Shown here: in pieces, positions 47,123 to 58,393 of the stretch | Layout: each line of letters opens with the position of its first letter | Numbering within the stretch: the first letter of the stretch is position 1 | Notes under the pieces: generated by a model | What the model was told of the DNA's origin: nothing | Seen by the model: only the letters and a program-made list of their open reading frames with translations | Databases searched by the model: none | Assembly: GCA_963810095.1 (NCBI GenBank) | Contig: CAWEMM010000011.1 | Span: 160,001-224,000 of the forward strand | Length of the DNA stretch: 64,000 nucleotides | Direction: 5' to 3' | DNA from: an uncultured Chloroflexia bacterium | GTDB lineage: Bacteria; Chloroflexota; Anaerolineae; CG2-30-64-16 | Made by a program: the position numbers and the translations under genes

Positions 47123-47251
47123 CAGGCTTACGGACGGCCGGTCCCTGTGCTATAATCATCCCGACGACGCCGTGCCTCTATCGAGCGCGCCTGTAACCTC
47201 TGGCGCACGGTGTCCGCACTACCCGGCGCGCTTCAAACCCGGAACAGCCAC

Positions 47252-48265
47252 TTGAGACGAATCAAACCCATACTGACCCTGCTCGTGCTGACCTCGGCTG
47301 CCCTGGTGGCGAGCCTGCTGCTTGCCGGCTGCGGCCAGGTCATCACACGGGTGACGCCGACCCCTTCGTCCACGCCCACGGCCCGGCCTGCGATCACCGT
47401 CGCGGCAACCGCGCGCCCCACCTCTACGCCCGCGCCTTATACGCCGGCCCCGACGGCAACGCCGACGATTACGCCGACTCCGATCATCTACAGCATTAAG
47501 TCAGGCGACAGCCTCCTCAAGGTTGCGACGAAGTTCGGGGTCAGCGTAGCGGGGATTCAGGACGCCAACGGCATCACCGACCCGCGTTCGCTCCGCATCG
47601 GCCAGGAACTGATCATACCGATCGAAGAGGCGGAAGAAGCGGCCTCGGGCACGCCGACGCCACAGGCTACCGCGCTGCCGTTTACTGTCACGAACCTGAG
47701 CTTCACAAATTCGCCCTTGGGCGGGCTGTGGAGTTTTGGGGAGATCGTCAACTCGACCGGCACGGAACTGGAACAGGCCGGGGTGACCGTTTCGCTGCTC
47801 GACGAGCAGGGCAATGTGCTGACGCAGGAACAGGGGTTCGTCGGGATTGACCTGCTCCGCCCGGGCGGCAAAGCGCCCTTTGCCCTACGCTTTGCCTCGC
47901 CGCCGCAGACGTTCAACAGCTACCAGGCGCTGCCATGGAAGGGCGTGCAAGGGTACGTGGGCAGTTATTACCTCGACCTTGCCGTGCAGGACGCCACCGG
48001 TTCCGGCGAGCGTTATTCGACCTACACGGTCGCGGGCACGGTGGCGAATACGGGACCGGAAGATGCGGTCGAGGTGACAGTGACGGTGACACTGTATGAC
48101 GCGCTGGGGCGGGTCATCGGCATGCGGCGCGCCGTCCCCGAGCACAACGTGATCCCCCGAGGCGGACAGACGAGCTTCAGCATCGAGCTAACCCCGGCCG
48201 GCGGCCCGGTAGCCAATTTCCATGCCGAAGCACTGGGACGGCGCCAGCCGACTCCCACGCCCTGA
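47252..48265 (+). CDS. LysM-domain lipoprotein with two FxLYD-like Ig-type domains
   Basis: Signal peptide with lipobox LLAGC, Pro/Thr linker, LysM (YSIKSGDSL..VA..FGV...ANGI.DP..LRIGQEL.IP), and VSLLDEQGN and VTLYDALGR domains. Extended -10 TGCTATAAT at 47148-47156. TTG start is inferred. Confidence 0.82.
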   Translation: MRRIKPILTLLVLTSAALVASLLLAGCGQVITRVTPTPSSTPTARPAITVAATARPTSTPAPYTPAPTATPTITPTPIIYSIKSGDSLLKVATKFGVSVAGIQDANGITDPRSLRIGQELIIPIEEAEEAASGTPTPQATALPFTVTNLSFTNSPLGGLWSFGEIVNSTGTELEQAGVTVSLLDEQGNVLTQEQGFVGIDLLRPGGKAPFALRFASPPQTFNSYQALPWKGVQGYVGSYYLDLAVQDATGSGERYSTYTVAGTVANTGPEDAVEVTVTVTLYDALGRVIGMRRAVPEHNVIPRGGQTSFSIELTPAGGPVANFHAEALGRRQPTPTP

Positions 48266-48410
48266 CCAACCGCAAAGCCACGGCCCCTCAGATGCGCTAG
48301 CCATAGAGGCGCAATAACGGCCGGTGGAGGACGGTAGCAGTTTCAGAAGACGTGCGTGTGGCGAAGGCAGGCGACGCACGCCTTCACGTAATTTCACATA
48401 CCCACGGGCT

Positions 48411-51400
48411 TCACGCGGCTGCTCCGACCATGCCGACGGGAGCATTCACCTGCTCACCCGACAGCAAGCCGGCGATTTCCTGCAGCATCTCGAGCGTCCC
48501 CACCTTGGAGCCAAACTCGCGCAGGGCGTCGTCCCATGTCGTATCGGTCTCCCCTACTTTGACGAGCAGCTCGCCGAAGAAGCCCACGAATTGGGGGCTC
48601 TTCTGCATCAGCCACGGCACGGCCGCGATGCCGCTGCCGGCCCACAGGCGGCTGAGCGGATACAGGTGAAAACCCTCGCGCACCGAGCGCACCAGGGAAC
48701 GCACCCGGCTGCCCTGCTCCGGATCGTTGGCCGACGTGTCGTCCAGCAGACCGTCGAGGAATTGGTCCACCTGTCCGGGATAGAAGCTCCGCGCGAGACG
48801 CAAGAAATCAACCAGCCGGACGCGCACCTGTTCGTCCTCGTAGCTCGCCCACCCGGCTATCGTGCCGAGCATCGGCGCGATGTTCGTGTACTGCGTAGCC
48901 GAGGCGATACATAGCCCGTCGACCAGGCAATCGATGATCCGCAAGATGCGGTGCGTCTGGCCCGCCTCGCCGCCTTCCCATGGCAACGCCAGGATCTTCT
49001 GAATGAAGTCAGAGGAACCACCCGTCTTGGTGCGGCACTCGTGGATCACGGGGAACTGCAGGTAGCCGACCGGAAACTCGGTCATCTTCGGTTTCTCGCC
49101 GGCGTTCCCTCGCACGGGGTACACGTACGTTGCTTCGCGGCCCGTCCACAGCTCGGTCAACATCTCTTCGACGAACGCGATATACTCCCCGCCGAGTTCC
49201 TCCATGTACGCGATCAGCGCCGCGATGCGCAGCGCCAGGTTCTTCGAGTACACGTTGCCCTCGTAGAACAGCCGCTTGCAGAAGCGCCAGGTATCGGCAC
49301 GCTCCGGTTCCTTCGCACGGGCATAGAAGATCATCGCGATGAAAAACATGGGGGTGCCAATCGGCTCCTGAGCGACATTGAACATGCGGTCCATAAGCTC
49401 GGGAGGGATCGGCTTCTTGGGATTGAGATAGCGGGCCATCGCTGCGATGGATGCCCGGTACTCGTGACCTACTCCATAGTCGAACACGCAGCTCAGCAAG
49501 TTGGCATTGTAGATCGCCGCGTTGTTCACGCCCTCGGCGATGAACGAATGCCCCCACCGGCTCAGCGCGAAGCGAATGCCCACAGACAGCAGGCCCTGGG
49601 AGATCAGCTGCGCAAACTGGGCCCACAGCCGGCCAACTCTGTATACGCGGTCGCCGCCCATGTACGCATAGCCCACCATCAGCACGGCGAGGTTAAGGAA
49701 CTGCTGAAGGCCCTTGATGATCTCGGATGCCCGATGGCTCCCGACGAAGTTCTTGAATGCCGAGGGCACCAGCGAACGGAACTGCCGGTCGATGTCGGCG
49801 TACAGACGCTCCAGAACCTGGCTGCCCTGCTCGGGTGCTCGCTGCCACAAATAGAACACGTACTGCGTCGAGAGTTGCCGAACCGCCTCGGATTTGTGCA
49901 TCAGGCCCGCGTGCAGCCCCTCGACCAAACCCACCTCATAGCACGTCTGCACCGCCACCCGGCCCGCGCCATCGCTGCTCATGTCGAGGAGAATATCGAC
50001 CACGAAGTCCCGCACCTTCTGCGGGTCGGTCATCGAATACTCGACCAGCATGTCGATCAGCATGGCCTGGACGCGTGAGTCGGTGCTCCGCGCCAACCTC
50101 TCCAACAGGGGCGTATCCCGCACCTCATGCTCGTCGAGATACATCTGCAGTGCGATTCGGACGGCGCCCCACAGCGACACGAACTCGGCCGATGCCCAAA
50201 TCTGTGCTGTGACGATTTCGGCGCTTTTGGAAGTCAATGGCTCGTGGCCAAGAATTTCGCGCTGGAGTAGATACTCGAAGACCCGATCATAGGTGAACTT
50301 GACCTTACACGGCTGCCGGTCCGCAGCGTCCTGCCGGCCAAACGCCGTCAACACGCCCTTGTCTCGCAGCTGCCAGTAGGGCGACGACAGGGTGGGATTC
50401 AACATTGCCTGCCGCAGCTCGGCATCCTCGCGCAAGTCGGTCTTGATGTCGAGCTCCTCGCGCTTGAGCTCGGTCATCTTCAGGAGGATGCGATCGAGAA
50501 ATGCCAGTTCCTCGCGGTCCTCATGCGACAGCGAATCGACGACATACCCGATCTTGGACTTGACGTAGTTCTCAAATACCTGGCGCGTCTTCGGCACACG
50601 CTTCAGCTCGCGCCCGCGAAAGCTGGTACAGACCAGGCGCATCATGAGCGGGTCGCGGATGAAGTTCTTCACGTTGTCGGGGAGTTCCTCGAAAGGTGTG
50701 ACGACCTCGTAGCGAACCTGGTACTTCTGGTAGACCTCGCGCAGCTCCCACAGCTCAAAACGTTGCAGCCTGATCGCTACCTCGCCAAGCGGCTGGAAGA
50801 AATACTGATCGCCGCGGAAGTTTGGCTTGAGGCGCCCCCAGGTTTCGCTCCGGCAGGTCGCTACAAGCTTGACCTTCAAGCCGGGGGAACCCGACAAGGC
50901 AAGCTCGCGAGCCAGCTCTACCAGCGAGTCCATCAGGCGGCCGGGCGCCTTCGCCTCGTTGACGGCGTCGAAAAGAAGGTACAACCACCTGGGCTGGTCG
51001 CTCTGATTCTCGGCCGCGAGCTGCTTGAAGCGCGTGAATACGCTGGTTTGGAGAAGCATCGACCGCTCGAGGATGCCGGTGACGTCTGGCGCTTCTTCGC
51101 GGATGTCGGCACAGTTGTACAGTAGGACGGCCTCACCCGCATCCTTAAGCGCGTCGGCTAGTGAACAGAGGAAGTTCGTCTTGCCCGTGCCCGAATCGCC
51201 CACGACGAAGAACCCGACCTGGCCAGACTGTAAATAGGGCTCCCAATGACGCATCACCGAGTCGCGCGGCACGTACACGCCCGGGTCGTACTTGTCCACG
51301 TAGAACACCTGCAGCTGATCCTGTGTGATCGAGCGACAGCGCGTCACCAAGGCCCGCCAGTCTTCGGGTTCCCGGCCCGTGCCCTTGGCGGTGTCGATCA

Positions 51401-52337
51401 GCCCCTTCAACTCGCCAACGTAGTCCTCGAGAGCGATGCGCAGCGAGCGGTGCGGCAGGTTCTTCGCGCGCTCGTCGTTGCGCAAGCCGACGTAGGTCAT
51501 CTCGTCGTGCGCAAACTGCTCATAGTAGAAGAAGTCGTCGCGAAAGTCCTTCTGGTCGGCGGGCCGTTTCTCGTGCACCGTGAACACCGCGAACGGAAGG
51601 AGCACGAGCTTCCCATCGGTCTTGAGGTTCCGCACGACCATCGTGCGACCCGGCTGGCACAGGAACGGTTGGGCCAGCAACTTCGTGGGCTCGGGCTTGA
51701 TTTCGGCCCCGCGCAGCACGTGGACGTCCCAATCGAACGCATCGCCATTCGGAGAGCAGTTGAAGACCTGGATCAACTCGTAATTCTTCAGCCACGACAA
51801 GGCGCTCAGCATTTCCAGCAAATGCTTGAGATTGTCGTCAAACTGCTGCACGAGGCGCGTCTCGTATTGCTCGAGACGCCCACCTTCCATCATGCCGCTG
51901 AAGATGCGGAGTTGGTCGACTGCCGACCACGCCCGGCTCGCCGAGCCGTCCTGGTCGAAAACGAAGCGAAACAGATCGGGGACGACCAGGCGGTCTTCGC
52001 GATGACGGCAGTGCCGCATAATATCGCGGATAAACGAAGTGCAGACCTTGATAGTGGGATGGTCGATGCTGTCCGCAATGAGCGCGTCCAGCTCGGCAGA
52101 CCGGAATCCGTAGGTCTCCACCAGCCGGCGGTACTCGCTGAGCGCAATGACCGCACAGTACCGAACGGCGAATTCGAAGGTCGAGACAAGCTGCTGGCAG
52201 CGCTCGAGTGGGTGCCCGGTCGGCATGTCCTGCAGTTGGCCGACCTCATAGCCGATGGGCAAGGGAAAATCGGTTACCTTGATCTCGCGTAGGCTCGCGT
52301 AAGCGGGTCTGAGCGACTCCTCAGAATGCACAGCCAC
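48411..52337 (-). CDS. Large STAND-class (NACHT/Avs-like) P-loop NTPase, about 1310 aa, with an unknown N-terminal domain and a helical-repeat C-terminus
   Basis: Walker A GDSGTGKTN, Walker B LYLLFDAVNE, sensor VATCRSETW, RDPLMMRL (GxP-equivalent) and winged helix (LRDKGVL...FTYDRVFEYL), then about 550 aa of HEAT/ARM-like helices. GTG at 52337 has GGAGG; the ORF track starts at 52349. Confidence 0.8.
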   Translation of the reverse strand: MAVHSEESLRPAYASLREIKVTDFPLPIGYEVGQLQDMPTGHPLERCQQLVSTFEFAVRYCAVIALSEYRRLVETYGFRSAELDALIADSIDHPTIKVCTSFIRDIMRHCRHREDRLVVPDLFRFVFDQDGSASRAWSAVDQLRIFSGMMEGGRLEQYETRLVQQFDDNLKHLLEMLSALSWLKNYELIQVFNCSPNGDAFDWDVHVLRGAEIKPEPTKLLAQPFLCQPGRTMVVRNLKTDGKLVLLPFAVFTVHEKRPADQKDFRDDFFYYEQFAHDEMTYVGLRNDERAKNLPHRSLRIALEDYVGELKGLIDTAKGTGREPEDWRALVTRCRSITQDQLQVFYVDKYDPGVYVPRDSVMRHWEPYLQSGQVGFFVVGDSGTGKTNFLCSLADALKDAGEAVLLYNCADIREEAPDVTGILERSMLLQTSVFTRFKQLAAENQSDQPRWLYLLFDAVNEAKAPGRLMDSLVELARELALSGSPGLKVKLVATCRSETWGRLKPNFRGDQYFFQPLGEVAIRLQRFELWELREVYQKYQVRYEVVTPFEELPDNVKNFIRDPLMMRLVCTSFRGRELKRVPKTRQVFENYVKSKIGYVVDSLSHEDREELAFLDRILLKMTELKREELDIKTDLREDAELRQAMLNPTLSSPYWQLRDKGVLTAFGRQDAADRQPCKVKFTYDRVFEYLLQREILGHEPLTSKSAEIVTAQIWASAEFVSLWGAVRIALQMYLDEHEVRDTPLLERLARSTDSRVQAMLIDMLVEYSMTDPQKVRDFVVDILLDMSSDGAGRVAVQTCYEVGLVEGLHAGLMHKSEAVRQLSTQYVFYLWQRAPEQGSQVLERLYADIDRQFRSLVPSAFKNFVGSHRASEIIKGLQQFLNLAVLMVGYAYMGGDRVYRVGRLWAQFAQLISQGLLSVGIRFALSRWGHSFIAEGVNNAAIYNANLLSCVFDYGVGHEYRASIAAMARYLNPKKPIPPELMDRMFNVAQEPIGTPMFFIAMIFYARAKEPERADTWRFCKRLFYEGNVYSKNLALRIAALIAYMEELGGEYIAFVEEMLTELWTGREATYVYPVRGNAGEKPKMTEFPVGYLQFPVIHECRTKTGGSSDFIQKILALPWEGGEAGQTHRILRIIDCLVDGLCIASATQYTNIAPMLGTIAGWASYEDEQVRVRLVDFLRLARSFYPGQVDQFLDGLLDDTSANDPEQGSRVRSLVRSVREGFHLYPLSRLWAGSGIAAVPWLMQKSPQFVGFFGELLVKVGETDTTWDDALREFGSKVGTLEMLQEIAGLLSGEQVNAPVGMVGAAA

Positions 52338-52365
52338 GTGTTCCTCCAACAGTTGCCGCCGGCGT

Positions 52366-53569
52366 CTAGCGACCCCCTATCCGGCGACCGAGCGTATTGA
52401 CAAACACGGCAAACGTCACCAGCCCCAGAAGCGATTCCGCAACGGACAGCGTCTTCGCCCAGGTGCTGAGCGCCGCCAGGTCGGCAAAGCCGATGGTGAC
52501 AAAGGATGCCACGCTGTACAGCAGGGCATCGGTGAATGAAAGAGCGGTCCGGCCAAAGGCGGCGCCGCCGGCAGCGTAATAGAGCCAGGCGAACAGCGAA
52601 GACCACCGCGACGGCAATCACCAGCGAGTTAATCACCCGTTCGCCGTAGCCCCAGGGTGCGCCAATCAGTGCGCTGGACAAAAAGCGTGAGAAATAGCGC
52701 ACTCTGAACCAGCCTGTGGCCGCGGCATCGAGCGCCCGATCCAGCCATTCTGGCACGTCCCGGGCGTACGCCCGCCTTCTCCTGCGGGTGATCCGGTTCC
52801 AAACCCGGTGGACACGCTCGCGAAGACGGAGTTGGGAGGACCGCAGCTCGGGCTCGTAGATCGCGACGCAGTAGCGCGGTGCATAGCAGTAACGCTCCAT
52901 CGTGCGCTCTTGTACGTAGGCCCAGGAAGCATCGTCATAGGCGCCCAACGAGAGGAAGTTGTTCTTCAGGTTGAGGTAGACCGCACACGCCTCGAGAAAG
53001 TCGCGATCCTTTTCCTGCCGAATCCCGGTTCCAAGCGAACGGCGGTCGATCCGCGTGCGATACAGGTTGGCCTTGCTAAAGTCGACCCCGTCGAGCTGCG
53101 CGCCTGACAGATTGGCGCCCTCGAGATTGGCGTTCTGGAAGTCGGCTCTGGTAAGATCGGAGCCTTGGAACTGCGCCTTTGTAAGCTCACAATCAATAAA
53201 CACGCTGTCTGGAAGGACTGCGTAGTTAAGCTGCGCGCCTGTCAGGTCGCAGTGCAAAAAGGAGGTGCTGTCCGCTCGCGCCCGGTCGAGCACAATGCCC
53301 GGCGCGTCCACGTCGACCAGGTCGATCACGGGAAAGCGGCAATTGACGAGCGACCATTTGGCAGGCAGCGGGTTCGCCCGAAGGGCTTCAATCGTCCAGT
53401 CCTCCAGGCTCAGCCGCACGCCACTGGCCGCCAGATCCTCCACCGCGCTGCCGCTCAGCACTTGCTGGTCCTCGCGCAAGAGATCGACCAGGTCGCCGTC
53501 CTTCAGCACCGGTCCCGACTTGCGAACCTGTTCCTGCAACAGCCGGCCGTCGATATGCTCACGCGCCAC
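52366..53569 (-). CDS. Pentapeptide-repeat protein fused to a 2TM/pore-loop (K+ channel-like) domain; frameshift about 52597
   Basis: A(D/N)Lxx repeats (CDLTGAQLN, SDLTRADFQNANLEGANLSGAQLDGVDFSKANL), helical Y..LKNNF...G.YDDAS, WGYGER, a TM segment, pore helix LLYSVASFVTIGFAD and TM ESLLG. GTG start with an AAGGAGG RBS. Confidence 0.8.
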
Positions 53570-53608
53570 CTGCAACCTCCTTCACTCGCCGACAACCTTC
53601 ATCTCGCG

Positions 53609-54685
53609 TTACAGCCCGATCGTGGCCAGGAGCCGCACCGCCGGTGGCTCAACCTGCCGCAGTTCCACGCGGTCGTCGAACACGACGGCGAAGGAGTTCA
53701 ACCCTTGCACCCCCGTGCCCATCTCGTCAACCCAGCTGCCGATACTCAGCAGCGACATATCGCTCTCGTCGCCGGCAAGCCACAGCTCGCTGTGGTGGAT
53801 ATGGCCGAAGACAAACAGGATGCGATCTATGGGCTCGTCTGGGCTCACAGTAAACTTCACGCCGCCTGCCCGCGCGATCTTTCGGGCGTCCTTGGCGTAG
53901 CACTCGATTGAACGAGCAGGCATATCGGGGAGCCAGGACACCGGCTTGGGCAGCGGTGCGCCGGCCCGGATCAGTGCCCGCGGCAAAGGCGTTCCCGCAA
54001 TCTCGCGACGCCACCGCTCGGAACGAAGGTGGATGCGGTCACGTTCGGCGCGATCCATCTCCCGCCGCCGGAAAGAGTCGAATACGTACGTCCAGGGTCG
54101 CTCCATTTCGGGAATGCCCCAGCGGTTGCATGGCGAACGGTGGCGCGTCAGGTGTGCCAGTTGCGGCGAAAAAGGCAGGTAACCGAGGTAGTGGCCGTGA
54201 TGCAAGATGAGGCGTTGGGGACCGATGGTGCGGGTTGTCAGGGGGTAAAACCAACTCGACCGTGTGCGTGCTTCAGGGGGGATGAGCGGCGCGATGAACT
54301 CCTCGAACAGAAATGCGGGATCACACGTCTCGTTGGCCGCATCGTCCGGCCGGTGGCTGTCCAGGTACTCATAGTAGAAGAGCAAGGGGTGGTCGTGATT
54401 GCCGAAACTGAAGCTGATGCGCTCGATGGGCAGCCGCGCAATCGCCTCCAGGAACGGCGCGGCCGCATCTGCGACGCGCCCCCACGGGAAGCGCCAGATC
54501 TCGAACACATCGCCAAGCAGAACCAATTCCTGGATATGGCCCAGATCTGCGAGGAAGTCCAGGAGTGCCGGCAGACTCGACGTGAAGCCTGTGTGTCCAT
54601 TCGAACCACGCTTGCCCGGCGCGGTCAGCGTGCAGTAACGCTCGCCGAAATGAAGGTCCGACAAGACAACGACGCAGTTGGCCAT
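53609..54685 (-). CDS. Calcineurin-like metallophosphoesterase
   Basis: All five motifs are present: SDLHFG, LGDVFEIW, GNHDH, HHGH and FGHIH, with a C-terminal SIGSW. Confidence 0.85.
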   Translation of the reverse strand: MANCVVVLSDLHFGERYCTLTAPGKRGSNGHTGFTSSLPALLDFLADLGHIQELVLLGDVFEIWRFPWGRVADAAAPFLEAIARLPIERISFSFGNHDHPLLFYYEYLDSHRPDDAANETCDPAFLFEEFIAPLIPPEARTRSSWFYPLTTRTIGPQRLILHHGHYLGYLPFSPQLAHLTRHRSPCNRWGIPEMERPWTYVFDSFRRREMDRAERDRIHLRSERWRREIAGTPLPRALIRAGAPLPKPVSWLPDMPARSIECYAKDARKIARAGGVKFTVSPDEPIDRILFVFGHIHHSELWLAGDESDMSLLSIGSWVDEMGTGVQGLNSFAVVFDDRVELRQVEPPAVRLLATIGL

Positions 54686-54800
54686 CGATCGTCCATCCCG
54701 TGGCTTTCGAGTCGCCCGACAGAATCTGAAAAGCAGGAGAAAAAGAGGCGTCAGCCGGAGTGATATCAGCGGCTACGACCTAGGACGGCACGATGTTACC

Positions 54801-55667
54801 CTAGCCGGCTGGTTTCTGCAAATGACCCGCACGGCGAGCCAGGCTGATCCACTCGTCCAGCCCGACCGTTTCCGCCCGGCGGGTTGGCGCAATGCCCGCC
54901 CCTTCCAACAACCGCTCGACGTCCGCCGGCGCCGTGCGCAGCCCCGCGGCCAGCGAATTCCGCAGTTGCTTGCGCGGCTGGCCGAACCCTGCACGGGCCA
55001 GCGCGAAAAATGCCGCGGCCGGCACGTCCTCGGCCAGCGGCGCAGGGCGGCGCTCCAGGCGGACGACGGCCGACTCGACCTTCGGCACGGGGTAGAACGC
55101 ACCGGCAGGAATCCGCCCGACGATCTTGCCCGTGCAGTAGAACTGCACGCCGAGCGCCAGCAGGCTCATGTCGGGCGGGCGCGCCACCATCCGCTCGGCA
55201 ACCTCGCGCTGCACCGTCAGGACGAGCAGGTCGGGAGGCAGCGCGGACTCGAGCAGATGGCGGATTACCGCGGAAGTGATGTAGTACGGCAGGTTGGCGA
55301 CGACCTTATAAGGACCGCCGGCCAGTTCGCCCGGGTCGGTTTCCAGAATGTCGGCATGGACGATGGACACGTGTGGCTGCCCGGCGAAACGCGACGCAAG
55401 AAACGGGACCAGGCGGTCGTCAAGCTCCACGGCCACCACACGGCCCGCCTGCTCCGCGATCAATTGGGTCAGTACGCCCGGTCCTGGCCCCACTTCCAGC
55501 ACGGTGTCTGTCGGGACAAGCTCGGCCGCGTCGACGATGCGCGCGCGGTGCGCCGGGTCGACGAGGAAGTTTTGGCCCAGGCCCTTCTTTGGGCGAATGC
55601 CGAGGGCGGCTAGTTCGTTAAGCAGTGGAGTTCCTTCGCTTTCGCCATGTGGCCGAATCCGACGCAC
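54801..55667 (-). CDS. rsmA: 16S rRNA (adenine-N6)-dimethyltransferase RsmA/KsgA
   Basis: PKKGLGQNFL, VLEVGPGPG, VANLPYYITS, VQREVAER, FYPVPKVESAV, RKQLRNSL and RRAET. Start position uncertain. Confidence 0.95.
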   Translation of the reverse strand: MRRIRPHGESEGTPLLNELAALGIRPKKGLGQNFLVDPAHRARIVDAAELVPTDTVLEVGPGPGVLTQLIAEQAGRVVAVELDDRLVPFLASRFAGQPHVSIVHADILETDPGELAGGPYKVVANLPYYITSAVIRHLLESALPPDLLVLTVQREVAERMVARPPDMSLLALGVQFYCTGKIVGRIPAGAFYPVPKVESAVVRLERRPAPLAEDVPAAAFFALARAGFGQPRKQLRNSLAAGLRTAPADVERLLEGAGIAPTRRAETVGLDEWISLARRAGHLQKPAG

Positions 55668-55718: not shown

Positions 55719-57521
55719 TCAGTCTTCGTCCAACTTCAGGATCGTCATGAACGCTTCCTGCGGGATTTCGACGTTGCCGATCATCTTCATGCGCTTCTTG
55801 CCGGCCTTCTGCTTCTCCAGCAGCTTGCGCTTACGCGAAATGTCGCCGCCGTAGCACTTCGCGAGCACGTCCTTGCGCACCGCCTTGACGTTCGCACGCG
55901 AAACGATCTTGTTCCCCACCGCGGCCTGGATCGGCACGTCGAACTGCTGCCGGGGGATCACGTCCTTCAGCTTACTGACGAGCTTCATCCCCTTCGTGTA
56001 CACCTGGTCCCGGTGGACGATCATGCTGAGCGCGTCCACCGCGTCCTTGTTGACCAGCACGTCGAGCCGTACCATGTCGGCAGCCCGGTAGCCCTCCATG
56101 TGATAATCGAGGCTGGCATAGCCGCGGGTGCGCGCCTTCAGGTCGTTGTAGAAGTCGGTCAGGATTTCGATCAGCGGGATGTGGTAGCTGAGGAGGACGC
56201 GGCGCTGATCCAGGTACTCCTGCGCCTTGAACTCGCCGCGGCGCGATGTCACCAGGTCCATCACCTGCCCGATGAACTCGGTCGGCGTGAACACGTCGAT
56301 CTGGACCCAGGGCTCGCGGATCTCGGTGATCTCCGTGGGGTCGGGCAGCTCCACCGGGCTGTCGATGACCACTTCCGAGCCATCCGTCTTGGTGACTTCA
56401 TACTCGACGCTGGGCGCGGTGAAAACCAGGTCCAGGTCGTATTCACGCTCCAGCCGCTCCTGGATGATCTCCATGTGGAACAGGCCCAGGAACCCGCAGC
56501 GGAAACCGTAGCCGAGCGCAGTGCTGGTCTCGGGCTGGTAGGTGAGGGACGCGTCGTTAAGCTGCAGTTTCGAGAGGGCGTCGCGCAGGTTGAGATAGTC
56601 GGCCGCGTCCGAGGGGTAAACCGATGCGAAGACCATCGACTTCATCGGCGTGTACCCGTGCAGAGGCGCAGCGGCGGGGTTGACGTTCGAAGTCAGCGTG
56701 TCGCCCACCCGCACTTCCGCGACGTTCTTCAGTCCGGTCGCCAGGTAGCCCACCTCGCCTGCTTCCAGCCGTCCGCTCGAGCGCATGTCGGGCCGGAAAA
56801 TCCCGACCTCCAGCGGCTCAAGCGTCATCCCGGACGACATGAGCCGGAGCGCTTGGCCCGCCTGCATGCTCCCATCGACCACACGCACGTACGCTACCGC
56901 GCCCTTGTAGGCGTCATAGTGGCTGTCGAAGATCAACGCACGCAGCGGCTGGTCGTGCTGGCCGCGGGGTGGCGGCACCTGGTGTACCACGGCTTCGAGA
57001 ACCGCCTTGACGTTTGTGCCGTCCTTGGCCGAGATCTTAAGCACGGAGCCCGCGGGCGTGCCCAGGATTTCCTCGATCTCCTCCGCGACCGCCTGTGGCT
57101 GCGCGGAGACGAGGTCGATCTTGTTTACGACCGGGATGATCTCGAGGTCGTTCTCCATGGCAAGATACAGGTTTGCCAGCGTCTGGGCCTCGACACCCTG
57201 GGACGCATCGACGATGAGCAGCGCCCCTTCACAGGCTTGCAGCGCTCTGCTGACCTCGTATGCGAAGTCTACGTGGCCGGGCGTGTCGATGAGGTTGAGC
57301 TCATAGGTCTGCCCATCGTTGGCCTGGTAGCTCATGCGCACCGCGGAGGCCTTGATGGTCACGCCCTTCTCGCGCTCCAGGTCCATGGTGTCGAGCACCT
57401 GGGCCATCATATCGCGGTCGGAGATCGTCCCCGTGATCTGGAGTAACCGGTCGGCCAGCGTGGATTTGCCGTGATCGATGTGCGCAATGATGCAGAAGTT
57501 GCGAATGAGTTGTTGGTCCAT
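55719..57521 (-). CDS. lepA: Elongation factor 4 (LepA)
   Basis: [41 protein letters not shown] and [23 protein letters not shown]. Confidence 0.98.
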
Positions 57522-57658
57522 CGTCCTCTTCTCTTGGTCCAGTGCGCCCAATTATAACACGCCTAACAAAAAAGCTTCCGGGGTCGCCTGACTGCATCAG
57601 GGCGCCGACCTCGGAAGCTCCGCGCTGGCTTCTAAGCAGCGCGCCGGCCGTTCTGGAT

Positions 57659-58324
57659 TTACAGGCTGCGCTCCAACCCGTCGCGGCTGAGCACGGTGAT
57701 GCGCGCCCGGCCGAGCCGAATAAGCCCGTCGGCCTGCAGACCGGCGAGGCAGCGGGCAACTACTTCGCGCGTCGTTCCGACCTCGGCCGCCAGGTCGGCC
57801 TGGGTGAGGCGCACTAGGTCGCCGTCTTTCTCGGTGTTGTCGAGGAGCGCAAGTACGACCCGTTCCCCAACCTTGTTGAACGACAACTGCGTGACCAGGC
57901 CGCTCAGATGGGCCATGCAGCTGGCCGCGCTGTGCCATGCGGCCCGGCACAAAACCCGGTCCTCATGTATCAGGTCTTCAAAATCGGTCCGCTTCAGCAC
58001 CAGGACTTCCCCGCTGTCGAGACCGTGAACTTCCGCCAGGGCACGCGGACCAAAGGTAAGCATGCAAATGCCGCCGCAAGAGCCGGATGTCGGATCACAA
58101 AAGATCTGACGCCGCCCGCGGACGGTGGCCTTGCCCATCTGCAAGGTGCCATTCAGCGGAAAAAGGACCACGCCCGCCGGCTCCCCATCCGAGAACAGGA
58201 TCGTGTTCTCCTGGAACCGCTCGATGCGCCCTTTGTCGAGGAGCGCCGCCCGGGTGGTGGCTGCGCAGTCTCGAAGGACCGGATTGCCAGTTTCAATGAC
58301 GACCATGTCGCTTTGATGCGGCAT
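57659..58324 (-). CDS. Crp/Fnr-family transcriptional regulator
   Basis: cNMP-binding-like beta barrel (ILFSDGEP...G.LQM) plus HTH LTQADLAAEVGTTREVVARCL. GGAGGAGG RBS. Confidence 0.9.
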   Translation of the reverse strand: MPHQSDMVVIETGNPVLRDCAATTRAALLDKGRIERFQENTILFSDGEPAGVVLFPLNGTLQMGKATVRGRRQIFCDPTSGSCGGICMLTFGPRALAEVHGLDSGEVLVLKRTDFEDLIHEDRVLCRAAWHSAASCMAHLSGLVTQLSFNKVGERVVLALLDNTEKDGDLVRLTQADLAAEVGTTREVVARCLAGLQADGLIRLGRARITVLSRDGLERSL

Positions 58325-58359
58325 AAGACCTCCTCCATAGGGCCGCTCTGCCCCAGCTT

Positions 58360-58393
58360 TGTATATCATATCACATAACTAAGGGCATGTCAA
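58360..58393 (-). promoter_or_regulatory. Sigma70 promoter of the Crp/Fnr gene overlapped by a Crp-like box
   Basis: Minus strand has TTGACA (58393-58388), a 17-bp spacer and TATGAT (58370-58365). TGTAT-N6-TCACA at 58360-58375 straddles the -10 element. Confidence 0.7.

Follow-up and report, generated by a model that had tools for sequence, protein, structure and literature searches.

The stretch of DNA considered here (the window) comprises 64,000 nucleotides (nt) of an uncultured Chloroflexia bacterium (assembly GCA_963810095.1, contig CAWEMM010000011.1, positions 160,001 to 224,000), and our subject is a cassette of three co-oriented minus-strand genes within it which, on the list of open reading frames (ORFs) and the sequence, lies between rsmA and a convergent gene for a LysM protein. 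The first gene encodes a metallophosphoesterase, the second a pentapeptide-repeat protein that ends in a two-transmembrane (2TM) channel pore and the third a nucleoside triphosphatase (NTPase) of the signal transduction ATPases with numerous domains (STAND) class (Table 1). Genes 1 and 2 are 39 nt apart and genes 2 and 3 28 nt, and a GGAGG ribosome-binding site (RBS) precedes each of the latter two; no site of that type was found in the sequence ahead of the start of gene 1. An original prediction, made from the letters of the window, had described three co-oriented genes with short gaps and strong RBSs before genes 2 and 3, flanked by rsmA upstream and the LysM gene downstream. This layout is confirmed, family searches agree with it on both flanks, and the three domain calls that it made also hold, as detailed below. 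Throughout, G000 denotes the genome that carries the window, other G numbers denote comparison genomes, L numbers retrieved loci and P numbers homologous proteins.

Table 1. The cassette, its parts and the genes beside it (positions in the window; aa, amino acids; TM, transmembrane segment)
Feature	Position	Strand	Extent or location	Description
Gene 1	53609-54685	-	358 aa, ATG start	Calcineurin-fold metallophosphoesterase
Gene 2	52366-53569	-	GTG start at 53569, TAG stop 52366-52368	Pentapeptide-repeat protein with C-terminal 2TM cation-channel pore
Gene 2 RBS, GGAGG	53576-53580	-	6 nt ahead of GTG	Read from sequence
Gene 2 pentapeptide-repeat region	53030-53347	-	About residues 75-180	Pfam PF00805, PF13599, PF13576
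Gene 2 pore module	52369-52617	-	Last 83 residues; +1 frame relative to repeat part in the window	TM1, pore helix with TIGFAD, TM2
Gene 2 frameshift site	52595			One base present in the window, left out of public contigs
Gene 3	48411-52337	-	GTG start at 52337, 1308 aa	N-terminal domain, NACHT-type STAND NTPase, alpha-solenoid
Gene 3 RBS, GGAGG	52343-52347	-	5 nt ahead of GTG	Read from sequence
Gene 3 N-terminal domain	51588-52337	-	Residues 1-250	Helical bundle, then five-stranded sheet
Gene 3 NTPase and winged-helix module	50238-51209	-	Residues 377-700	Pfam NACHT, PADLOC Avs2
Gene 3 C-terminal repeat region	48414-50237	-	Residues 701-1308	Presumed sensor; helical repeats, weak HEAT_2 match
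rsmA	54801-55667		Same strand, upstream of cassette	PF00398, 2.1e-54
lepA	55719-57551		Same strand, upstream of rsmA	Flank gene
LysM protein gene	47210-48265		Convergent, downstream of cassette	Followed by lycopene cyclase and methyltransferase genes
Segment without DNA similarity to congener interval	48272-54848		blastn similarity stops at 48261-48271 and resumes at 54849	Marks insertion or replacement

The channel encoded by gene 2 combines two recognisable parts. Its pentapeptide repeats match Pfam at 4.2e-22 within the N-terminal 327 residues, and its pore matches Ion_trans_2 at 7.3e-12 (45.5 bits against a cut-off of 22.5). As deposited, the gene is out of frame near position 52595, with the repeat part and the pore part in two frames, and the database copy of the protein is a 431-aa read-through product. 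Logan contigs from four runs of one study were compared with the window over 48000-55000; these runs may include the source sample of the genome, so that the comparison is not fully independent. Both of the contigs that cover 52595 lack the base in question, one from run X2 (depth 5.1) and one from run X3 (depth 3.2), and outside this base their mismatches to the window number 0 and 1. With the base removed, gene 2 reads through all 400 aa in one frame, free of internal stops. Since neither contig carries the extra base, gene 2 is probably intact in nature, and the frameshift is better read as an indel of the assembly or as a minor variant than as the mark of a dead gene. In a congener, G001, lepA, rsmA, the LysM gene and the methyltransferase gene were each matched in two or three adjoining tblastn pieces (L031, G001:C29:228000-243500). 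Such splitting suggests that indels are frequent errors of that assembly, which bears on the weight of a single frameshift in genomes of this genus.

In the restored protein, hydropathy places two hydrophobic segments at about residues 307-339 and 371-394, with the TIGF of the selectivity filter at residue 358 between them. Homologues of the pore include tetrameric 2TM channels: a profile of the gene 2 family (alignment A4) matches KirBac3.1 in the Protein Data Bank (PDB) at 2.6e-9, and the pore part by itself matches KirBac3.1 at 3.6e-6 and KcsA at 2.9e-4. HalA, the channel of the Hailong defence system, was not among the best 60 PDB matches of either query, an absence of little weight. The canonical potassium-channel selectivity filter is TVGYG; that of gene 2 reads T-I-G-F-A-D (family consensus TTIGF), which sets it apart from the potassium-selective 2TM channels. 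Filters of the TIGFA type are read as those of poorly selective cation pores, and the sequence suggests that gene 2 encodes such a pore.

Gene 3 is assigned to the NACHT clade of STAND NTPases by a marginal Pfam match over residues 377-510 (PF05729, 26.9 bits against a gathering score of 26.7) together with an intact Walker A motif, GDSGTGKT, which is invariant in alignment A1. PADLOC (PADLOC-DB 2.0.0, from 2023) finds Avs2 at 2.8e-10 and 36.6 bits over residues 377-698 only, and the NCBIfam equivalog for Avs2 (NF041813) gives 22.9 bits over residues 376-700, against a cut-off of 1000. The protein begins with 370 residues that are family-specific. The structural model of the N-terminal domain (N-domain) is confident over residues 11-248, and Foldseek returned no PDB match for it at E<=0.001. 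The best rows of a wide VIA comparison were of the HEPN type (Roquin HEPN 4txa, Z 11.0; 1wwp, Z 9.4; the HEPN toxin 8xdj, Z 8.9; also Csm6), all with scores below the caution line of the tool for helical bundles. An ESM Atlas search of the N-domain gave unnamed clusters with a best score of 0.84, below the lead threshold of that tool. HEPN domains act as RNase effectors in other systems, with a site defined by the motif Rx4-6H. Before residue 286, alignments A1 and A3 hold no invariant arginine or histidine that could form this site. The N-domain, HEPN-like in its modelled shape, is treated here as a non-enzymatic adaptor or regulatory domain. A homotypic adaptor domain common to the STAND N-domain and the N-terminal part of the channel was considered and dropped (best BLASTP E value 2.2). 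When residues 1-250 of the STAND were modelled in complex with the cytosolic part of the channel, the score was 0.00 twice, a result that carries no weight either way because the controls did not fold.

The protein encoded by gene 1 has no Pfam match of its own at E<=0.1; its homologues carry PF00149. It belongs to the calcineurin-like metallophosphoesterase superfamily on two grounds, an alpha/beta sandwich fold and the five metal motifs (D10-x-H12, GD59, GNH97D, H163-G-H165 and GH295-x-H297), all invariant in the 15-sequence alignment A2. The AlphaFold model (mean predicted local distance difference test score 79.6; predicted template modelling score 0.85) finds LpxH 5b49 in Foldseek at E 3.4e-8. 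In VIA, where its fold matches span Z 13.6-17.3, the model aligns best with LpxH 6ph9 (Z 17.3, root-mean-square deviation 3.8, 236 of the 243 LpxH residues, helical insertion included), nearly tied with the PolD DP1 exonuclease (Z 16.2). Gene 1 is thus apparently an active phosphoesterase with an LpxH-like helical insertion, its active site being intact in sequence. The likeness to LpxH extends to the fold, the insertion and all metal-binding motifs; the two differ in that identity is only 15-18% and the protein has 358 aa against about 240. The NCBIfam equivalog for LpxH (PRK05340) does not match gene 1, and the distant relative P0014 reaches 23.5 bits against a cut-off of 134. The profile of the anti-phage phosphoesterase DS9_1 (NCBIfam NF053862, cut-off 420 bits) likewise scores low, at 13.8 bits and E 0.019 on gene 1, over the common N-terminal motifs only, and at 22-29 bits on its relatives.

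The cassette is accessory at the rsmA-LysM locus. rsmA is present in all eight genomes of the genus, and 12-15.5 kb around it was compared in each of the seven congeners. In every one of the seven, the rsmA-LysM spacing is 689-1222 bp and tblastn (E<=1e-5) detects none of the three cassette genes there; the accessory status that the original prediction implied is therefore upheld, and the cassette is not a core feature of this locus among these relatives. The congener interval holds an ORF of about 215 aa for a PlsC-like acyltransferase, again in 7/7 (loci L028-L034), split over two frames in G002. It was named from BLASTP, which at 27% identity (9e-19) pairs it with a PF01553-bearing ORF, and from the acyltransferase motifs NHxxxxD and PEGTR read in its sequence. 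No orthologue of this gene was found in the 88.5%-complete assembly of G000; a 33% paralogue on contig C13 was the only related gene. By these comparisons the cassette, with the intervals 48266-48410 and 54686-54800 on either side of it, seems to have replaced the PlsC-like gene. The G+C content of the cassette is 0.60-0.63, against 0.64-0.67 in the flanks. The cassette is, on this evidence, an accessory insertion; that it was acquired horizontally forms part of the overall reading given below and shares its grade, a little on the probable side.

Relatives of the cassette indicate which of its parts belong together. A metagenome scan returned 17 loci, among which L010-L013 are overlapping contigs of closely related populations and are counted as one lineage. 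In L013, genes for a CHAT protease (PF12770, 2e-26; PADLOC SAVED_CHAT, 2e-18), for a channel with pentapeptide repeats and Ion_trans_2, and for a STAND protein follow each other in this order, co-oriented and with short gaps. The STAND is 33% identical to gene 3 and the channel 33% identical to gene 2, with a similarity that is not confined to the repeats but also takes in the linker and the pre-TM motif WGYGE. The remaining 13 metagenome loci hold the NTPase part only or are cut contigs, and no channel was found in any of them. On these sequences the pair of channel and STAND is conserved over a large distance, with a different first gene, and because a CHAT protease holds that position in the L013 lineage, gene 1 looks like an exchangeable third component. 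The tripartite unit of the original prediction is accordingly not what recurs: the protease replaces the phosphoesterase in the other lineage, and it is the pair alone that is seen twice. Co-occurrence across genomes thus holds for the pair and not for the three genes together.

The same lineage shows how the STAND varies. Among the alleles of L010, L012 and the second copy of L011, compared in bins of 100 residues, residues 1-700 are 73-100% identical (at least 90% in most bins), against 36-61% over residues 700-1290. Such hypervariability of the C-terminal region is as expected of a sensor domain under diversifying pressure. L011 itself is a structural variant (L011:3-7360), with two tandem STAND copies and a gene for a GDPD phosphodiesterase between them.

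The STAND family is very rare. A word-indexed search with the STAND found nine proteins, namely its own, three at 46-51% identity, one at 28% and four at 23-26%, and a search of 1.84 billion representatives with the N-domain gave 36 matches at E<=1e-3, 23 of them at least 1100 aa long. The N-domain is matched in 4 of 401 genomes of the phylum, G000 and G326 included; the other two phylum matches, in G302 and G444, are weak and fall on cyclic-nucleotide-monophosphate (cNMP)-binding proteins of about 520 aa next to signal peptidase genes. At E<=1e-5 the STAND is matched in 9 of 61 wider relatives, again with G000, and within the genus otherwise in G005 alone, at 25% identity. A profile search of genome contigs with the STAND alignment returned at least one remote locus and was uninformative. 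Two proteins, at 66% and 38% identity, are closely related to the phosphoesterase. For the channel, a phylum search with a whole protein (P0055) was non-specific, since the 136 matched genomes among 401 were matched almost only on the pentapeptide repeats; with the linker and pore part, 3 of 401 genomes were matched, that is, 2 further among 400. In the plasmid collection, tblastn gave no STAND match at E<=1e-8 and no phosphoesterase match at E<=1e-6. In viral contigs there was no STAND relative among 590 pattern matches, and, for the phosphoesterase, there were 2 remote matches among 36.

Some relatives of the individual genes lie within known defence loci. The full-length STAND homologue of G005 (E 2.7e-36, query residues 1-843) stands between PglX and PglZ of a bacteriophage exclusion (BREX) locus that also has BrxL and HEC-07 and is adjoined by an IS21-like transposase. 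Auxiliary effectors embedded in BREX loci are reported as common in the available part of a BREX survey (PMC12839542). This locus (L035, G005:C12:66000-85999) is type 1-like; its PglX ORF matches PglX models over the last 200 residues only, so the gene may be disrupted, and the transposase is 1.8 kb away. In G172 (L082:9452-14801) a channel homologue follows directly downstream of HsdS (4.8e-16) and HsdR (1.8e-64) of a type I restriction-modification (R-M) system, all on one strand. The defence setting anticipated by the original prediction is seen for relatives of two of the genes, in BREX and type I R-M loci. In G283 a channel homologue is next to a histidine kinase and a weak phosphoesterase-like ORF. 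Finally, a 1875-aa protein of G326 with N-domain and NACHT module is encoded back to back, that is divergently, with a CorA-like protein (PADLOC, 1.3e-32), possibly a channel partner of another type for STANDs of this family. The CorA-like protein (L043:12347-14353) has 668 aa and two C-terminal hydrophobic segments, and a PDB sequence search gave no match for it or for a 261-aa ORF of L081.

The original prediction had recognised no named system in this gene combination, and PADLOC and NCBIfam agree: curated cut-offs on the sequences place the cassette outside Hailong, Avs2, DS9 and LpxH. The closest parallel for gene 2 is Hailong, in which a channel of the pentapeptide type reportedly serves as an immune effector that a small DNA ligand keeps closed. 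Gene 2 appears to follow the overall layout of the HalA profile, with repeats in a putatively cytosolic N-terminal part and a two-helix pore at the C-terminus. That profile (NF051894) gives 24.0 bits (1.9e-5) on the pore part and 14.3 bits (0.017) on the repeat part, with a cut-off of 250, and aligns nearly end to end with family members (e.g. residues 44-334 of P0091 with model positions 63-336) at scores far below the cut-off. According to the accessible part of one review, HalA is a homotetrameric channel that depolarises the cell once inhibitory oligodeoxyadenylate is lost (PMC13434031). The cassette differs in having no HalB nucleotidyltransferase; within it, gene 2 is flanked by the STAND NTPase and the phosphoesterase, neither of which has a nucleotidyltransferase family match. 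The gate would here be a protein switch, not oligodeoxyadenylate.

Gene 3 shares with the Avs/AVAST and bNACHT proteins an N-terminal domain, an NTPase, C-terminal repeats and, to judge from the L010-L012 alleles, a hypervariable C-terminal region. Of the bacterial STAND defence proteins described, many consist of one polypeptide, and in the bacterial STAND receptors of the nucleotide-binding leucine-rich repeat receptor (NLR) type described so far the effector is mostly an enzyme domain fused to the receptor. Gene 3 differs in that its N-terminal domain is not a recognised enzyme, the presumed effector being a separate channel gene rather than a fused domain. A second parallel is offered by the NTP-dependent conflict systems of Kaur, Burroughs, Iyer and Aravind, whose variable effectors, in the portion of the article available, include pentapeptide repeats, calcineurin-superfamily phosphodiesterases and caspase-superfamily peptidases (Kaur et al. 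2020, PMC7159879). The ternary systems among them likewise couple a constant NTPase to fast-varying effectors and count STAND NTPases among their parts; they differ in that an ion-channel pore fused to pentapeptide repeats is not mentioned in that portion, and neither MoxR-vWA nor an effector-associated domain was found in the cassette. CRISPR-associated CorA and RexAB offer a third, in which a separate sensor protein opens a membrane channel, RexA and RexB being described in the accessible part of a preprint (bioRxiv 10.1101/2024.07.02.601686). The CorA-like protein beside the G326 STAND recalls this arrangement, whereas the channel families are not homologous and the G326 gene pair is divergent, not co-oriented. 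The literature consulted yielded no description of a pentapeptide-repeat channel combined with a NACHT STAND, and the STAND clade tables of a further preprint, only part of which was accessible, may already list this clade (bioRxiv 10.64898/2026.01.04.697583).

Based on these results, we give slightly better than even credence to the reading that this is a horizontally acquired conflict cassette, anti-phage or abortive-infection in nature, built around the pair of STAND and HalA-like channel, with an exchangeable first gene. In such a cassette the variable C-terminal solenoid of the STAND would recognise a cue derived from the invader and the NTPase module would oligomerise. The N-domain, taken as non-enzymatic, would then, directly or via the third protein, release or open the presumably tetrameric channel, and with the cation pore open the membrane potential would collapse and the infected cell would stop. 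The phosphoesterase of gene 1 would be a second effector or a regulator. What the sequences show directly is the gene content, the insertion, the conservation of the pair, the defence loci around relatives and the variability of the sensor region. Sensing, oligomerisation, gating and the part played by the phosphoesterase we infer by analogy with NLR-like proteins and Hailong. The same holds for the division of labour in the original prediction, where the STAND would sense, the channel would depolarise and the phosphoesterase would handle a signal or cut nucleic acid. A bolder version, which we offer tentatively and with some doubt, is that the cassette represents a new NLR-type immune system in which a NACHT STAND with a non-enzymatic adaptor gates a HalA-like channel in trans, the first gene is interchangeable and the family may also be wired to a CorA-like channel. 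If so, sensing of the NLR type in prokaryotes would be coupled directly to ion channels as death effectors.

Several observations weigh against the conflict-cassette reading. The case for it is computational throughout. The pair of channel and STAND has been seen in two independent lineages only, the window and L010-L013, and the full combination of three genes just once. Six lineages of N-domain STANDs have a readable neighbourhood, and their partner is a pentapeptide-repeat channel in two, a CorA-like protein in one and neither in three (G005, G010, which ends at a contig end, and L014, a cut contig). The neighbourhoods covered leave out the contigs of the closest STAND homologues, P0046-P0048 at 46-51% identity, as well as those of P0174-P0180 and of the closest phosphoesterase homologues, P0004 and P0005. 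At a deeper distance, among P0046-P0049, divergence is even along the whole protein. PADLOC gives no model match for the channel or the phosphoesterase, its Avs2 match covering the NTPase only. Scans of the window found no repeat, tRNA or integrase at the insertion junctions, and the window holds 0 tRNAs. To these must be added the broken frame of gene 2 as deposited. Finally, the L012/L013 lineage carries its cassette amid glycerolipid genes, with CdsA and an alpha/beta-hydrolase upstream and a PlsC-like gene, GlpD and PlsY downstream. In L014, from another study and with a G+C content of 43%, a STAND 42% identical to that of L012 adjoins a GlpD that is 52% identical. From the sequences, this synteny of STAND and GlpD looks like long vertical retention and not like island turnover. 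As an observation in its own right, the glycerolipid neighbours recur at L012:2890-6678, L013:2451-6952 and L014:2838-4499, in two diverged organisms.

Among the alternatives, the one that survives best is that the neighbours are independent: the STAND would be a single-gene receptor like Avs or bNACHT, with the N-domain as its own effector, and the channel and phosphoesterase would be co-transferred or there by chance. Single-polypeptide STAND defence proteins are indeed common, the G005 homologue has no adjoining channel gene and the N-domain is shaped like HEPN domains, which elsewhere are RNase effectors. That resemblance falls at Z 9-11, below the caution line, and the N-domain lacks an invariant arginine or histidine for Rx4-6H. 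Moreover, channel and STAND are neighbours in an unrelated lineage too, at 33% identity and with order and orientation kept, the short gaps and the RBSs before genes 2 and 3 fit one operon, and the three genes arrived as one block. We therefore regard independence as unlikely.

A housekeeping role is somewhat less probable still, and we judge it quite unlikely. Here the STAND would belong to a module for membrane or glycerolipid signalling, as the regulated switch of a cation channel and of a pyrophosphatase that acts on lipids or nucleotides. The LpxH-like fold of gene 1, the GDPD gene, the glycerolipid neighbours and the PlsC-like site together are the reason why this lipid-linked explanation is kept as a rival. 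LpxH, the closest fold, is a nucleotide-lipid pyrophosphatase; the cassette occupies the site of the PlsC-like acyltransferase of 7/7 congeners; in L012/L013 it lies between CdsA with the alpha/beta-hydrolase and the PlsC-like, GlpD and PlsY genes; the GDPD gene separates two STAND copies in one variant; and the L014 STAND adjoins GlpD, a synteny kept although the two proteins have diverged to 42% and 52% identity, respectively. Yet PolD DP1 comes within about one Z unit of LpxH, which makes the lipid reading of the fold non-specific, and with L010-L013 counted as one lineage the association with lipid genes comes from about three lineages. The failure to find the cassette at this locus in seven congeners and the great rarity of the family fit a housekeeping role poorly. 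C-terminal hypervariability between near-identical alleles is typical of receptors under diversifying pressure, and BREX and type I R-M loci harbour other members. That the block is a decaying relic that no longer works, its channel gene a pseudogene, is highly improbable: the deposited gene 2 is frameshifted and its database protein is a read-through, but both short-read contigs lack the extra base, the corrected frame is stop-free, genes 1 and 3 are full length with catalytic motifs and the split matches of G001 indicate that indel errors may be common in assemblies of the genus.

Should the conflict-cassette reading be correct, an NLR-like ATPase controlling a separate channel protein would link two known defence principles and show a tetrameric cation channel gated in a new way. 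The pair would be a compact route from sensor to pore that can be tested in a laboratory host by ordinary phage-defence assays, and near-identical alleles that differ in their C-terminal half only provide natural material with which to map what the sensor recognises. Should the lipid-linked explanation hold, the STAND would be an unusual switch in membrane homeostasis.

A few minor features of the surroundings may be recorded. Repeats in the window belong to short two-copy or three-copy families only. Promoter-like sites number 1, against 1.3 expected, and terminator-like sites 6, against 6.0 expected. A second pentapeptide-repeat ORF, a 198-aa open frame whose match is without the pore part, lies on the contig of the cassette about 15 kb before the window starts (G000:C11:144293-144730). 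Just past lepA, at 57659-58369, a Crp/Fnr-type regulator (cNMP_binding and HTH_Crp_2), for which no link to the cassette was seen, is syntenic in the congeners.

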